Below are positions 27,011-32,665 of a stretch of DNA of 36,246 nt, piece after piece. This DNA is from a virus (Duplodnaviria; Heunggongvirae; Uroviricota; Caudoviricetes). How positions within the stretch are numbered: the stretch's first letter is position 1; every line of letters starts with the position of its first letter. The notes under the pieces were generated by a model. It searched no databases and was not told the origin of the DNA. It saw only the letters and a program-made list of their open reading frames with translations. A program made the translations under genes and the position numbers. The DNA lies in the IMG/VR virus record IMGVR_UViG_2703718820_000015, positions 1-36,246 of that record. One strand, given 5' to 3'.

Positions 27011-28387
27011 TCATACGTCAGCCCCTTGTGCATATCGTCTGCCACGTGCAGCGGGTGCATTTGATGTTGTGCAAATCTGTCTGGCTTCATCCTGGTCACA
27101 TGCAACAAAGTGTCCGTTGCAGAACCGCTGGTAAACCGTACCAAGTGAGCCAAAACGGTTTTTCGTCACAATGATTTCAGCAAATGGCGCGGCGCTACTG
27201 TTCTCGTCATATACCGCTTCCCGATAGAGCATGATGATTGAGTCTGCGTCCTGTTCAATGCTTCCTGAATCACGCAAATCTGCGTTTGTCGGGCGTTTGT
27301 TTGGTCGCTTCTCAACATCGCGCGAAAGCTGACTTAGGGAGATAACAGGCGTTTTCAGGTCTTTCGCCATCGCCTTCAGGCTTCCGGAGATGTGAGCAAT
27401 TGCGAGGTCGTTGCGATCTGCTTTCGGCTTCTCAATCAGGCCAAGATAATCCACCATGATGAGTGACAGGTTTGGATTTTCCTGTTTGTGCCGTTCTGCG
27501 ATTGAGCGTATTTCTTCGACCGATAACCGCGAGGCATCGACTACCCATACATCCAAATCTGCAAGCTGACTCATGCCGTTAGCAACGCGCGCCCAGCCTT
27601 CGTCATCCATCGAAGCAGGATTTCGCAGCACGCTAACCGGCATCCTCCCGGCGTTGGCAATGCTTCGCTCTGCAATCTGCAATGCGCTCATTTCCATCGA
27701 GAAAATCAACACTCCGCGCCGGACGTCAGAACCAGGAATAACGCGGCTTGCAACGCCTTCGGCAATCTTCAGCGCCAGTTCGGTTTTCCCCATACCAGGA
27801 CGAGCGGCGATAATCACCAGGTCTTCTGCATTCATCCCTCCGGTGATAGCGTCAAGTTCTTCGATTCCGGTCTTCAGGGTATCTGACTCTTCTCCGTTCC
27901 TCAGGCGCCTGTCAAGCGTGTCGGTGTAGTCAGTGATGATTTCCCCTAACCGTACAGGTTTAACCTCGTCACGGGGCTTTCTGATGGCTGAAAGACGCTT
28001 TACAAGTTCATCCATCGCCTGACTCGATGCGTCGATGGTTCCGCTCTGAATTGGTTCACGCATTTCATCCATGATTTCCAGCACCAGACGGCGGTGATAG
28101 TTATCCGCGACCATTCCGGCATATCCCTTCAGGTTTGCGGCGCTCGGGCAGTTTTTGCTGGTCATCAGGATTGAGGTGAAATGCTCCTCTCCGCACGCCT
28201 CGGCAACCATCAGCGCGTCGATTAGGTTTCTGTTTCTCGCCTGCTTGCGGATAACCTCGAAGGCTTTCCGGTAGAGAGGAATTGAAAACGCTTCCGGATC
28301 CAGCGTTGCCAGAACGTCGCTGGCGGTTGGCGTTAATCCACCAATCAGCAGGCCACCGATAACGCTCGCTTCGATATCCTGTCTCAT
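27011..28387 (-). CDS. Replicative DNA helicase, DnaB family (P22 gp12-like)
   Basis: 458 aa; Walker A region [12 protein letters not shown] and DnaB-like C-terminal domain; same length as P22 gp12. Confidence 0.9.
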
Positions 28388-29331
28388 GCAATCCCCCTGT
28401 CTGCAAACTTCCCTTCCCGTACTCCCGTTAACGAATCTTCCCTCAACAGGTAATCAAAATCAGCTGTCCAGCCCGTGTCGTTGTCTCCGAAGTAAAACGG
28501 CTTGGCCTGATGCACAAACGCCCTGACATACGCTCTGAAACCGTCCACGTTTGGCGTTTTCAGTTGCGGGATGATTTTCTTCAGGCGGCGTTTTCGTTTC
28601 TCGTTGACCGCAACAGCGTGTGGAAGTCTGTCACCGACTTCGGTGTTGTAGGCGTTCAGGAAGGATTCGTAGTCGATTCGTTCTGCCTTGCGACGTTCAG
28701 GTTTAACCTGCCCATCGCCTCCCCCATTGGGGGGTAGGGGGGTATTATTTATATTCTTGTTAATACCTTCTTGTTCATGATGTGCGGTTGTTTGTGCGGC
28801 TTCATGTGCGCTTTCATGTGCGGCATGTGCGCTGAAAGCCGCGCCATTACTGTCTTCGTCATGTGCTGCATCATGTGCGGTTGTTTGTGCGGCTTCATGT
28901 GCGGGTAAATTGTCCATTTTTTGAGCATATTCATGGTAATTTGTGATGGTTATCACACGACCTTTTTGCTTCTCTCCATCAATGGAGATCATCCCCTCTT
29001 TCACAAAAACCTGAAGCATCCGCTCAACCTGATCACGGCTTGCTGGCTTGCCATGTCTGTCGCATAACTGAAGACCTAAATCAGCTGCTGTCACAACCAG
29101 TTGACCGGGTTGCAGATGCCATTCATGACCTTTGAAATTCGCTTTGTATGGCTTTCTGGCGGCATTCAGGAGAAGGTTTTCCCACAGGGTGCGAAGATAA
29201 ACATCTTTCGCCCATGACTGTTTCAGAATGCTCCGGTACAACGGAATGTAACCAGTTTTCTGGTTCTCCATCCTGTTGCTCCTGCGCTCGTGTGCGGCGC
29301 TGAAATCGTAGATTTTTGCTGTATTGCTCAT
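28384..29331 (-). CDS. Replication initiator (lambda O / P22 gp18-like) containing the origin
   Basis: 315 aa; contains an Ala/His-rich low-complexity linker encoded by iterons; immediately upstream of the helicase gene. Confidence 0.8.
28738..28905. repeat. Candidate origin of replication: iterons plus AT-rich element inside the initiator gene
   Basis: Two 35-bp direct repeats (28776-28810 and 28870-28904, differing at one base) and about six copies of CATGTGCG; flanked at 28738-28768 by an AT-rich stretch. Confidence 0.65.
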
Positions 29332-29333
29332 AA

Positions 29334-29606
29334 CTACCTGCCTTGACGAAAGACCTTAAGAACATCGTTAAACTGACTTACGGATATGTCTTCTTTGAGA
29401 AGCTTTTCCAGAAATGCGTTTGGAATGAACGTATATCCCTCCTCTTTTGGTAGAGACGGGAGCAACGCCCTCGCCTCAGCCTTCAGAAGCTCAGTTCTGG
29501 CAACTTTCACAAAAGAGATTTGAGTTCTTTCATCAATGGAACGAAGGAAGCGCAAACGCTTAGCTTCTTTGTGTGTATCAGGTGGATTAAAGCCTTTGTT
29601 TCGCAT
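29334..29606 (-). CDS. Hypothetical protein between cII and the replication initiator (90 aa)
   Basis: ATG at 29604-29606 with GAGGT SD. The longer ORF-track form would overlap cII and is rejected. Confidence 0.5.
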   Translation of the reverse strand: MRNKGFNPPDTHKEAKRLRFLRSIDERTQISFVKVARTELLKAEARALLPSLPKEEGYTFIPNAFLEKLLKEDISVSQFNDVLKVFRQGR

Positions 29607-29628
29607 ATAATTACCTCGCTGGATGTTG

Positions 29629-29922
29629 TTAAAATTCCATTTGTATTTGATCAGAACGCTCGGTTGCCGCCGGGCGTTTTTTATTGGTGAGAATCGAAGC
29701 AACTTGTCGTGCCAATCGGGCCATGTCGTCGTCAACGACACCCCATTCAAGAACAGCAAGCAGCATTGAGAACTTTGGAATCCAGTCCCTCTTCCACCTG
29801 CTGATCTGCGACTTATCAACTCCCACAGCTTCCGCTGTCTTCTCAGTTCCAAGCATTGCGATTTTGTTAAGCAACGCACTCTCGATTCTTAGAGCCTCGT
29901 TGCGGTTGTTTGCACGAACCAT
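29629..29922 (-). CDS. cII: Transcriptional activator CII (lambda type)
   Basis: 97 aa MVRANNRNEALRIESALLNKIAMLGTEKTAEAVGVDKSQISRWKRDWIPKF..., near-identical to lambda CII as recalled; AAGGAAAT SD. Confidence 0.95.
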   Translation of the reverse strand: MVRANNRNEALRIESALLNKIAMLGTEKTAEAVGVDKSQISRWKRDWIPKFSMLLAVLEWGVVDDDMARLARQVASILTNKKRPAATERSDQIQMEF

Positions 29923-29954
29923 ATGTAAGTATTTCCTTAGATAACAATTGATTG

Positions 29955-29980
29955 AATGTATGCAAATAAATGCATACACC
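29955..29980 (-). terminator. tR1 terminator region
   Basis: Perfect 8-6-8 palindrome TGTATGCA-AATAAA-TGCATACA followed by a U-rich tract on the minus strand; matches lambda tR1 as recalled. Confidence 0.7.
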
Positions 29981-30001
29981 ATAGGTGTGGTTTAACTTGA
30001 T

Positions 30002-30033
30002 GCCCTTTTTCAGGGCTGGGATGTGTAAGAGCT
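30002..30033 (-). promoter_or_regulatory. nutR (boxA and boxB)
   Basis: Minus-strand CAGCTCTTACACATCCCAGCCCTGAAAAAGGGCA: boxA-like then the boxB hairpin GCCCTGAAAAAGGGC, as in lambda nutR. Confidence 0.85.
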
Positions 30034-30041
30034 GGAATGTC

Positions 30042-30257
30042 TTAAGCGGCTTTGTGTTCCGGCGGGAACACGTCATCAAGACTGACTTTTGCGCCTAACT
30101 TGTTTAGGCACTCAACAAGAGCACGGCATGTTTTAAGGTCTGGGAAGCGACGACCAGATTCCCAATGTCCGATAGCTCCCTGTGTGCATCCAACTGCCTT
30201 AGCAAGTGTTGTTTGAGAGATATTCAGTGACTCTCGATATTTTCGTAGGTTGCTCAT
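30042..30257 (-). CDS. cro: Cro-like repressor (HTH XRE family; not lambda Cro)
   Basis: 71 aa MSNLRKYRESLNISQTTLAKAVGCTQGAIGHWESGRRFP...; GGAGGG SD; divergent from cI. Confidence 0.85.
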   Translation of the reverse strand: MSNLRKYRESLNISQTTLAKAVGCTQGAIGHWESGRRFPDLKTCRALVECLNKLGAKVSLDDVFPPEHKAA

Positions 30258-30368
30258 ATGCCCTCCATAGTAACCATGAAGCAATAATACGATATGTACT
30301 TTTAGAATGCAAACAAAAAATACATCTTGTGCATGGATGATTTTAGTACAGAGCGTAATAATAAGGGT
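30258..30368. promoter_or_regulatory. OR/PR/PRM region
   Basis: Minus-strand PR (-35 TTGCAT, 17-bp spacer, -10 TATTAT) with a 16-bp operator-like site AAGTACATATCGTATT overlapping it (30286-30301); a second related site near 30341-30356; plus-strand TAATAA -10 just before the cI ATG suggests a leaderless PRM transcript. Confidence 0.6.
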
Positions 30369-31028
30369 ATGAAAATGAAATGGTATGAACTGGCTAGATC
30401 CAGAATGAAAGAGCTCGGCATAACTCAAGAGAAGTTAGCTGAAGAGCTTGGTATGACGCAGGGTGGAATTGGTCACTGGTTGCGCGGATCTCGTCATCCA
30501 TCTCTTGACGAGATTGGTGTGGTGTTTAAATACCTTGGTATTGATAACGTCTCATTCAACCACGACGGTACATTTTCACCTGTTGGCGAATACTCATCTG
30601 CCCCCGTTAAAAAACAATATGAGTACCCTGTTTTTTCTCATGTTCAGGCCGGGATGTTCTCGCCTGAGCTTAGAACCTTTACCAAAGGTGATGCGGAGAG
30701 ATGGGTCAGCACAACCAAAAAAGCCAGTGATTGTGCGTTCTGGCTTGAAGTTGAAGGTAATTCCATGACCGCGCCAACAGGATCCAAGCCAAGCTTTCCT
30801 GACGGGATGTTAATTCTCGTTGACCCTGAGCAGGCTGTTGAGCCAGGTGATTTCTGCATAGCCAGACTTGGTGGTGACGAGTTTACCTTCAAGAAACTGA
30901 TCAGGGATAGCGGTCAGGTGTTCCTACAGCCACTAAACCCGCAATATCCAATGATTCCATGCAATGATAGCTGTTCCGTAGTAGGGAAAGTTATCGCCAG
31001 CCAGTGGCCTGAAGAGACATTTAGTTAA
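30369..31028 (+). CDS. cI: CI-type prophage repressor: heterologous HTH N-domain fused to a lambda-like S24 C-domain
   Basis: From [20 protein letters not shown] to the end the protein matches the lambda CI C-terminal domain as recalled; the N-terminal HTH domain is unrelated to lambda CI. Start is either 30369 or 30375. Confidence 0.9.
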
Positions 31029-31060
31029 CAGCCTCACAACTCTAAAACACACAACAATAA

Positions 31061-31089
31061 CCCGACCTTAGCGTCGGGTTTTCTTTTTC
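31061..31089 (+). terminator. Intrinsic terminator downstream of cI
   Basis: CCCGAC-CTTAGC-GTCGGG hairpin followed by TTTTCTTTTT. Confidence 0.7.
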
Positions 31090-31153
31090 CAAAATATAAA
31101 CCCATTAAATACAAAGCGTTATAAAAAACTAATTATATTTAGAACATTTTGTA

Positions 31154-31182
31154 TTGACTCGATAAAGTACAAATCGTACTAT
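31154..31182 (+). promoter_or_regulatory. pL promoter with overlapping operator OL1
   Basis: -35 TTGACT (31154-31159), 17-bp spacer, -10 TACTAT (31177-31182); operator-like AAGTACAAATCGTACT at 31165-31180, 14 of 16 identical to the OR site. Confidence 0.65.
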
Positions 31183-31223
31183 TTAGCCATCAGCAGGACG
31201 CACTAACCACCATTGAAGGTGAG

Positions 31224-31253
31224 GCTCTTAAAAATTTAGCCCTGAAGAAGGGC
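31224..31253 (+). promoter_or_regulatory. nutL (boxA GCTCTTAAA, boxB GCCCTGAAGAAGGGC)
   Basis: Matches lambda nutL as recalled, between pL and N. Confidence 0.85.
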
Positions 31254-31521
31254 AGCATTCAAAGCAGAAGGCTTTGGGGTGTGGTGAAGCCAGCTAGTCA
31301 CTGGCAAGTGCTTACCTACTGTTGAGCGGTGAAGCGCTCCCAACGCTAGCAATAGCGTGGACGAGATGGGGAGCCGCGGGCGATAAGGCCGCCATAACGC
31401 GCACGTTGTCGCATGGAAAAATCGCTGGGGTGCCGGTTATCCCCCTCCGAATGAGACTCAACAAGCTGGAGCTAGACTACCAGCCACCACACCACCAAAG
31501 CTAACTGACAGGAGAATCCAG

Positions 31522-31854
31522 ATGGATGCACAAACACGCCGCCGCGAACGTCGCGCAGAGAAACAGGCTCAATGGAAAGCAGCAAATCCCCTGTTGGTTG
31601 GGGTAAGCGCAAAACCAGTTAACCGCCCTATTCTCTCGCTGAATCGCAAACCGAAATCACGAGTAGAAAGCGCACTGAATCCGATAGACCTTACGGTGCT
31701 GGCTGAATACCACGAACAGATTGAAAGCAACCTGCAGCGTATTGAGCGCAAGAATCAGCGCACATGGTACAGCAAGCCACGCAGTGAAATGGGTGTGACT
31801 TGCTCAGGCCGCCAGAAGCAACGCGGAAAATCAATTCCAGCTTATTACGATTGA
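31522..31854 (+). CDS. N: Antitermination protein N (lambda type)
   Basis: 110 aa; arginine-rich motif MDAQTRRRERRAEKQAQWKAAN and most of the body match lambda N as recalled; C-terminus diverges. Confidence 0.9.
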   Translation: MDAQTRRRERRAEKQAQWKAANPLLVGVSAKPVNRPILSLNRKPKSRVESALNPIDLTVLAEYHEQIESNLQRIERKNQRTWYSKPRSEMGVTCSGRQKQRGKSIPAYYD

Positions 31855-31862
31855 GGTGAGAT

Positions 31863-32114
31863 ATGGAATTTCATGAAAGTGCGATTTGTGATTTTCGCGC
31901 TAACGCAAATTCAGTAAAACCACAGCCAATTGCAGTTCTTTTTAAAACAATGGGTTCGTGGGCTGTTTTATGCTTCGCCGCTGATGACACTGACGCAAGA
32001 ATGGCAATAGGCCAAGAGATGGAGATGGACCCGACAAACGCTGAATTCATAATTTATGGCGCTCCATCTAATTACTTACTTGATACCTGCAACATTTACA
32101 ACAAGGCTGCCTGA
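31863..32114 (+). CDS. Hypothetical protein (83 aa) in the ral/sieB position
   Basis: ORF immediately after N; ends in KAA; no family recognised. Confidence 0.45.
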   Translation: MEFHESAICDFRANANSVKPQPIAVLFKTMGSWAVLCFAADDTDARMAIGQEMEMDPTNAEFIIYGAPSNYLLDTCNIYNKAA

Positions 32115-32250
32115 TGGTGGCCTTCATTTTTGGCATAAACAACAGAATAAACACTGCACTGTGTATTCATTCCAACGAGTGAATACACGGAGCAATGTCG
32201 CTCGTAACTAAACAGGAGCCGACTTGTTCTGATTATTGGAAATCTTCTTT

Positions 32251-32277
32251 GCCCTCCAGTGTGAGGGCGATTTTTTA
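32251..32277 (+). terminator. Intrinsic terminator (tL-like)
   Basis: GCCCTC-CAGTGT-GAGGGC hairpin followed by GATTTTTTA. Confidence 0.7.
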
Positions 32278-32296
32278 TCTGTGAGGATATGAACAG

Positions 32297-32665
32297 ATGT
32301 CAAACATCAAAAAATACATCATTGATTACGACTGGAAAGCATCAATAGAAATTGAAATCGACCATGACGTAATGACAGAGGAAAAACTTCACCAGATTAA
32401 TAATTTCTGGTCAGACTCTGAATACCGACTCAATAAACACGGCTCTGTATTAAATGCTGTATTAATCATGCTGGCGCAACATGCTCTGCTTATAGCAATT
32501 TCAAGCGACTTAAATGCATATGGTGTTGTGTGTGAGTTCGACTGGAATGATGGAAATGGTCAGGAAGGATGGCCTCCAATGGATGGTAGCGAAGGAATAA
32601 GAATTACCGATATCGATACATCAGGAATATTTGATTCAGATGATATGACTATCAAAGCCGCCTGA
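32297..32665 (+). CDS. Hypothetical protein (122 aa), AT-rich
   Basis: ORF with upstream GAGGA; markedly AT-rich; ends in KAA; no family recognised. Confidence 0.5.
   Translation: MSNIKKYIIDYDWKASIEIEIDHDVMTEEKLHQINNFWSDSEYRLNKHGSVLNAVLIMLAQHALLIAISSDLNAYGVVCEFDWNDGNGQEGWPPMDGSEGIRITDIDTSGIFDSDDMTIKAA

Follow-up and report, generated by a model that had tools for sequence, protein, structure and literature searches.

The immunity region of this element is very probably a module of the VT2-Sakai type set in lambda-type flanks, working as a lambda-like switch and carrying an old, shared recombination junction in the repressor hinge. Its predicted immunity specificity is that catalogued as CI2c/Cro4 (Smith et al. 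2012) and as CI clade I (Fagerlund et al. 2022). The module is already known, its hybrid relation to lambda CI has been published, and the arrangement is ordinary phage mosaicism. The C-terminus of lambda CI was described as common to these repressors (Smith et al. 2012), and lambda CI and VT2-Sakai-type CI both belong to clade I, with 61% overall identity (Fagerlund et al. 2022; PMC8951638). The original prediction of a hybrid immunity region thus stands in so far as the region is a mosaic relative to lambda, but the mosaic is not particular to this element: it is widespread and has the same breakpoint in the Stx phage.

The window, by which we mean the whole analysed stretch of 36,246 nucleotides, is classed as a P22-like (Lederbergvirus-type), lambdoid Escherichia coli phage or prophage, and its best whole-window matches (36 kb) were Kapi1, CUS-3, vB_EcoP-720R6, Sf101 and Sf6. 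Its plus strand corresponds to the lambda leftward strand. The cI and cro genes are divergently transcribed, with three predicted sites between them and three more at PL, which is the layout of a lambdoid CI/Cro switch (Table 1). An Rfam scan of 29500-32300 gave no match at E<=1.

Table 1. Genes, control sites and cassette edges of the immunity region (positions in the window)
Feature	Position	Strand	Details
P gene, DnaB-like	27011-28387	-	
O-like gene	28384-29331	-	
cII, lambda-type	29629-29922	-	PF05269; 94/97 aa (97%) identical to lambda CII
PRE CII-binding repeat (assigned)	29900-29913	+	TTGCGGTTGTTTGC; inside lambda-homologous block
nutR boxB	30002-30016	-	GCCCTGAAAAAGGGC; identical to lambda
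Right cassette boundary	30036-30041		between cro stop and nutR; lambda homology ends at 30035, Stx1-phage homology runs from the cro stop, 30042
cro	30042-30257	-	71 aa; HTH_3
PR	30284-30313	-	-35 TTTGCA, 18-nt spacer, -10 TATTAT; sigma-70-like
OR1, predicted	30286-30300		AATACGATATGTACT; site of the first 16-mer; overlaps PR -10 and spacer; putative operator in AP005153
OR2, predicted	30319-30333		AATACATCTTGTGCA; 2 mismatches; 5 bp upstream of PR -35
OR3, predicted	30345-30359		AGTACAGAGCGTAAT; overlaps inferred PRM -10
PRM -10, inferred	30356-30361		TAATAA
cI	30369-31028	+	
cI, 5' part	30369-30617	+	HTH_3 DNA-binding domain and first part of linker, aa 1-83
cI, 3' part	30618-31028	+	remaining linker, Ala-Gly site (HVQAGMF), Peptidase_S24
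cI-stop edge			only the tImm-like terminator beyond
tImm-like intrinsic terminator	31059-31080	+	directly 3' of cI
OL3, predicted	31108-31122		AATACAAAGCGTTAT; 2 mismatches
OL2, predicted	31141-31155		AGAACATTTTGTATT; abuts and overlaps PL -35
PL	31154-31182	+	TTGACT-17-TACTAT; sigma-70-like
OL1, predicted	31166-31180		AGTACAAATCGTACT; site of the second 16-mer; in PL spacer/-10
Left cassette boundary	31187/31188		about PL +1; lambda/HK544 homology restarts at 31188
nutL boxB	31239-31253	+	GCCCTGAAGAAGGGC; identical to lambda
N antiterminator	31522-31854	+	lambda-type arginine-rich motif; PF11438 (N36), E 1.6e-26

In blastn, the segment 30042-31028, with cro, OR and the entire cI, matched the Stx1-converting phage record AP005153 at 92.8% nucleotide identity. 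The match has no break between the stop codons of cro and cI and so includes the 'lambda' C-domain. Cro is identical to its Stx1-phage counterpart at 70 of 71 residues (99%) and CI at 212 of 218 (97%), with 80 of 83 identical in the N-domain and residues 1-46, including the HTH, unchanged. The AP005153 record marks putative operators, three on each side, together with PR, PRM and PL at corresponding places, and its CI is labelled 'similar to phage lambda CI'. The region therefore aligns largely end to end with a single known immunity type, at nucleotide identities of 98% in cro, 95.2% in the part of cI encoding the N-domain, 82% in OR and 78% in OL; the flanks differ.

A 601-bp query spanning cro, OR and the 5' end of cI matched 68 phage records. 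Identity was 99.2-99.5% in vB_EcoP-720R6, vB_EcoP-683R2, Dewey and Louie, 97.8% in phi458, and about 94% in VT2-Sakai, the Stx1-converting phage, 1717, YYZ-2008, Nil2 and many other Stx phages. Among 5426 complete E. coli genomes, 776 contained the core at >=90% identity, and 122 records did so at >=99%. With its flanks included, the region 29633-31817 is 98.5% identical to vB_EcoP-720R6 in blastn.

The encoded repressor combines an HTH_3 domain (E 8e-11) with a Peptidase_S24 domain (E 9e-29) in Pfam. Its linker and C-domain are identical to lambda CI at 133 of 136 residues (98%), the part of the gene encoding the C-domain having about 28 nucleotide differences and three amino acid changes, and the QAG cleavage site, the serine of GNSM and the lysine of FKKL are all intact and aligned identically to lambda. 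The N-domain shares 22% identity with that of lambda CI and matches lambda repressor structures weakly, though significantly. We assign it to the lambda repressor fold family, with a predicted difference in specificity. The positive-control patch of lambda (QESVAD) aligns with QEKLAEE, acidic in both, which is consistent with PRM activation by this CI. Cro belongs to HTH_3, whereas lambda Cro belongs to another family, PF09048; it is 35% identical to the N-domain of its own CI, and the recognition helices read TQGAIGHW (Cro) and TQGGIGHW (CI). The claim that cro and the CI N-domain are unrelated to lambda is therefore right for Cro and too strong for the CI N-domain.

The operators are of a non-lambda kind. 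Two 16-bp sites had been proposed: AAGTACATATCGTATT (30286-30301, minus strand, in the PR spacer and -10) and AAGTACAAATCGTACT (31165-31180, plus strand, in the PL spacer and -10). They are identical at 14 of 16 positions, and no other match occurs in the 36 kb, where shuffling gives an expectation of 0.01. Both are retained as OR1 and OL1, but the window has six predicted operators, not two. The four further sites are additions to the original prediction. All six 15-bp sites fit ARTACR-N3-YGTAYT with 0-2 mismatches and cluster only at OR and OL. When up to one mismatch was allowed, the whole 36 kb had five matches, four of them within the OR/OL set, and such match statistics are partly circular because the consensus was built from the six sites themselves. 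Independent support therefore matters, and it has three sources. The six positions coincide with operators annotated in AP005153; the window and AP005153 keep the operator half-sites, with one half-site base different in OL3 (GTTAT vs GTTGT), against a background of divergence at the centre of the sites and between them; and the annotated repressor sites of g341c, ATAC-N5-GTAT, have the same core. Operators of the lambda type (TATCACCGNNNGTGRTA family, <=3 mismatches) were absent from 30259-30368 and 31087-31187. The spacing, centre to centre, is 33 bp for OR1-OR2, 26 bp for OR2-OR3, 25 bp for OL1-OL2 and 33 bp for OL2-OL3, unlike the 24/23 (OR) and 24/20 (OL) of lambda. PR and PL have the sigma-70-like hexamers listed in Table 1; those of PRM failed to pass the promoter scan.

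Pairwise blastn of the window against lambda (J02459) delimited the surroundings of this module. Homology to lambda was found at 29633-30035 (96.5% nucleotide identity; cII and the rutB/nutR/rutA, or tR1, region), ending 6 nt short of the lambda cro end, and at 30618-31022 (93.8%; cI from lambda codon 102 to the stop). Further blocks were 31051-31086, matching lambda immediately downstream of rexB (terminator), 31188-31283 (95.8%; PL +1 through nutL), 31475-31778 (97.4%; N) and 32098-32600. In the same comparison, no nucleotide homology to lambda was found in 30036-30617 (cro, OR and the first 83 cI codons) or in 31087-31187 (OL/PL). The edges of the cassette coincide with functional boundaries, namely the cro stop, PL +1 and the cI stop. 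These blocks, the identical boxB elements and the 97% and 93% identity of CII and N to lambda bear out the predicted lambda-like character of the CI C-domain, cII, N, nutL, nutR and tR1, and a junction between cro and nutR was likewise correctly foreseen.

The lambda N/nut antitermination features are present, with an arginine-rich N and boxB hairpins in both early transcripts. N is identical to lambda N at 99 of 106 residues (93%), its last ~25 residues being different, and nutL boxA is GGCTCTTA, the HK544 allele. For PRE, the pattern TTGC-N6-TTGC occurs five times across the window against three expected, which is not significant; the assignment in Table 1 follows from position within the lambda-homologous block and not from the repeat count. 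Several observations go beyond the original prediction: a second pair of junctions, one at PL +1 and one at the cI stop, the lack of rexA and rexB in the cassette, a 191-bp replacement of the N leader relative to lambda (31284-31474), and the non-lambda C-terminus of N.

In a multiple alignment, nucleotide identity to lambda leaps from background to 100% at TATGAGTACCCTG (~30618-30621), and the window, 720R6 and the Stx1 phage all switch at one and the same nucleotide. The switch falls at lambda codon 102 (Met counted), ten residues upstream of the Ala-Gly site and within the interdomain linker; we take the limits of the CI domains and linker to be those of the established lambda repressor structure. 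The predicted junction in the cI hinge is thereby located. One might suppose that no recombination occurred in cI and that diversifying selection for new immunity made the N-domain evolve much faster than a conserved C-domain, as the gradual gradient against g341c C1 (52% amino acid identity in the N-domain, 79% in the C-domain) and the HTH_3 assignment of both N-domains would allow. Nucleotide identity to lambda, however, rises from ~37-47% to 100% within a few bases, and a C-domain 93% identical including synonymous sites adjoins an N-domain in which nucleotide homology can no longer be detected. Such an identity step at the hinge is incompatible with a uniform gene genealogy; we therefore reject rate heterogeneity without recombination and find this supposition scarcely credible. 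We read the sharp switch in the cI linker as an old domain-level recombination that is common to all of this immunity type and did not arise in this phage.

The age of the event bears on whether the phage could be a fresh hybrid. Sharp nucleotide switches at 30036-30041 and ~30618, between flanks 96-97% identical to lambda, are what a recent cross in this phage's lineage between lambda proper and a heteroimmune phage would leave, with crossovers at the hinge and between cro and nutR. Yet the C-domain alleles are approximately equidistant: the window allele is 93.2% identical to lambda at the nucleotide level, no closer than the Stx1 allele (92.9%), and 91.5% identical to Stx1. Stx phages with cassettes that have diverged by 5-8% have this breakpoint too, the flank at nutL carries the HK544 allele and not that of lambda, and the configuration is widespread. 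The shared breakpoint and the equidistance of the three alleles indicate an old hinge event in which lambda itself was not the partner; on these grounds we reject a recent splice with lambda and regard a recent hybrid origin as highly improbable. An old hinge recombination shared by the immunity type accounts for the data.

Its direction is another matter. A non-lambda domain 'spliced onto' a lambda C-domain, as the original prediction had it, is not established, since the N-domain family occurs in g341c C1 together with a lambda-like C-domain (79%). The identities to g341c C1 suggest that this N-domain family has long had a lambda-type C-domain as its companion. It is thus possible, although we lean somewhat against it, that the direction was the reverse, the linker and C-domain being native to the Sakai/epsilon34-type family and lambda cI the recombinant, which would have gained either these parts or its own N-domain; the cI of the window would in that case be the form without recombination. 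The two domains are paired in g341c C1 with related ATAC-N5-GTAT operators, which makes the family pairing of N- and C-domain older than the split between the lambda and Sakai C-domains (98% at the amino acid level), and the lambda N-domain is the outlier against both (22-23%). Against this, informative sites in the C-domain are patchy and cluster by half, and the window allele is slightly nearer to wild phages of lambda immunity and HK97 (93.6-94.6% nucleotide identity) than to Stx phages (91.2-92.1%), so repeated exchange may have erased the direction. A C-domain like that of lambda (98%) acting on operators spaced differently raises the prospect that pairwise cooperativity might be wired differently. 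That the linker and C-domain are ancestral to the Sakai/epsilon34-type family, with lambda recombinant, and that cooperativity is also rewired, for example through the close pairs OR2-OR3 and OL1-OL2, appears unlikely when taken together.

A working model of the switch starts from the observed positions of genes and sites and takes binding and regulation by analogy from lambda. CI dimers would bind the six 15-bp pseudo-palindromes through the HTH_3 N-domain. Bound at OR1 and OL1, within the -10 and spacer of PR and PL, they would block the early rightward and leftward transcripts. The OR2 centre lies ~43 bp upstream of the cI ATG (30369), the geometry of lambda OR2 and PRM, and the site is thus placed to activate PRM. 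PRM would probably yield a leaderless cI mRNA, as suggested on geometric grounds by this arrangement and the TAATAA hexamer. Occupation of OR3, over the PRM -10, would give negative autoregulation. Cro, which is paralogous to the N-domain of CI and has almost the same recognition helix, would recognise these operators too. Dimerisation and both pairwise and long-range cooperativity are expected from the linker and C-domain, and RecA-stimulated self-cleavage at Ala-Gly from the Ser/Lys dyad of the C-domain. Establishment by CII at PRE and antitermination by N at nutL and nutR would be of the lambda type. No study in which the cognate repressor of this immunity type was assayed on its operators came up in the literature search; the only EMSA found with VT2-Sakai operators used lambda CI, with an apparent Kd of 3.7-6.4 micromolar, which is near-nonspecific (PMC10742460).

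The prophage falls in a common immunity group, with the module found in 14% of the complete E. coli genomes, in many cases as part of a Shiga-toxin prophage. We predict superinfection immunity and possible repressor cross-talk with Stx phages of the VT2-Sakai type. The region is a clean textbook case of lambdoid mosaicism with module boundaries at functional edges (the cro stop, PL +1 and the repressor linker), and its importance beyond annotation is small. From the literature searched, the cognate repressor-operator interaction of so widespread a type is a modest experimental gap. If cooperativity were wired differently, the system would be a natural experiment on how far the cooperativity domain of lambda tolerates changes in operator geometry.

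Compared with known systems, the window shares with lambda (J02459) the divergent cI and cro, the tripartite OR and OL, and PR, PRM and PL, as well as the CI linker and C-domain, cII, the PRE repeat, nutR, nutL and N. It differs from lambda in its operators and their spacing, the CI N-domain (22%), the Cro family, rexAB and the N leader; the lambda operators, lambda-type CI N-domain and PF09048 Cro that mark imm-lambda are lacking. Lambda hybrids carrying imm434 or imm21 have a cassette bounded on the left near PL and on the right between cro and cII/nutR, and the CI/Cro pair of 434 includes an all-helical Cro that is paralogous to the N-domain of the repressor. The imm434 and imm21 cassettes bring their own C-domains, whereas the C-domain of the window cassette is lambda-type. 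Of the experimentally characterised repressors we found that are related to lambda CI but have non-lambda operators, the closest, likened here by its description, is that of BAA2326, an O104:H4 Stx2 phage (Chakraborty et al. 2018; PMC5977221). This repressor shares 61% identity with lambda CI, is bound by anti-lambda-repressor antibodies and has three footprinted OR sites with cooperative binding at OR1-OR2; the phage has no recognisable OL or N (PMC5977221). Its footprinted operators (ATAACTGTGCGTAATG and others) were rejected as those of the window, from which they differ, although the ATAAC/ATTAC half-sites are reminiscent.

Nearer relatives are found among repressors of the same family. 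C1 of Salmonella g341c/epsilon34 is a full-length homologue (70% identity) with HTH_3 and S24 domains, a lambda-like C-domain and the ATAC-N5-GTAT operator core; unlike the window it has the recognition helix TKGAVSHW, an N-domain only 52% identical and a different site spacing, and presumably confers a different immunity. Phages of the VT2-Sakai/Stx1-phage/1717/YYZ-2008 type (AP000422, AP005153) have six operators with half-sites like those of the window and an equal hinge breakpoint relative to lambda. The Stx phage flanks carry an HK022-like cII and an HK97-like N, whereas those of the window are lambda/HK544-like; in the Stx phages ~1.5 kb of additional genes separate cI from OL, where the window passes directly from cI through tImm to OL; and the window and the Stx1-converting phage show a 1-bp difference in OR1-OR2 spacing. 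In 720R6, 683R2, Louie, Dewey and phi458 the module shows only point differences from that of the window, and the rest of their genomes are different mosaics.

Between nutL and N, the window carries a replacement segment of 191 bp in the N leader, where lambda has 80 bp. The lambda RNase III hairpin keeps its outer stem here (GGCUUUGGGGUGUGGUG...CACCACACCACCAAAGCU), apart from a G:C insertion that is compensated, while the hairpin interior differs from that of lambda and is larger. The predicted fold has a free energy of -103.8 kcal/mol (z = -3.6); a scan of 29500-32300 at E≤1 returned no Rfam match for it. At ≥99% identity, the segment is present, nearly always without annotation, in 19 phage records, among them Sf6, HK544, HK633, HK446, mEp213, mEp043, Sf101, and 720R6, and it is also carried by 60 of 5426 E. 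coli genomes. Upstream, the nutL boxA differs from that of lambda (CGCTCTTA) and is the allele also found in HK544, a wild lambda-immunity phage. Downstream, in the region 31779-32114, the final ~25 codons of N differ from those of lambda N, and past N, lambda homology restarts only from position 32098, with the 3' end of ral and with ea10.

Coordinates of features in the window and in Salmonella phage g341c (L005)
Feature	Coordinates	Strand	Description
Direct repeats	28774-28916		Inside O-like gene
Hairpin and T-run	29653-29680	+ (leftward strand)	Strong; cII 3' end, within lambda-homologous block
tImm-like hairpin terminator	31059-31080		Directly after cI
nutL boxA	31215-31224		GGCTCTTA
Replacement segment	31284-31474	+	191 bp, between nutL and N
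60-aa ORF	31322-31504		TTG start; overlaps replacement segment
83-aa ORF	31863-32114		After N; without lambda counterpart
Annotated g341c OR sites	L005 1420-1491		13-bp ATAC-N5-GTAT; 59 bp apart
Possible middle g341c OR site	L005 1444-1456		ATACATAGTTTAC

The interval between cI and OL (31029-31107) lacks rexA/rexB, and 36 bp of it match the lambda sequence immediately downstream of rexB. In this it is unlike the Stx1-converting phage AP005153, in which ~1.5 kb of other ORFs separates cI from OL. The position of the candidate terminator hairpin at the cII 3' end presumably corresponds to that of the lambda oop RNA terminator.

Within the O-like gene, at least eight direct repeats of the CATGTGCG(G) type are clustered at 12-bp multiples and encode a His/Ala-rich protein repeat. 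The cluster looks like a set of candidate ori iterons within the replication-initiator gene, a layout resembling that of lambda, whose ori iterons likewise lie inside the initiator gene. Operator arrangement was compared with that of g341c, where a middle OR site possibly lies between the two annotated ones. With this site, the g341c OR spacings are 24 and 35 bp compared to 33 and 26 bp in the window, despite the homologous repressors of the two phages.
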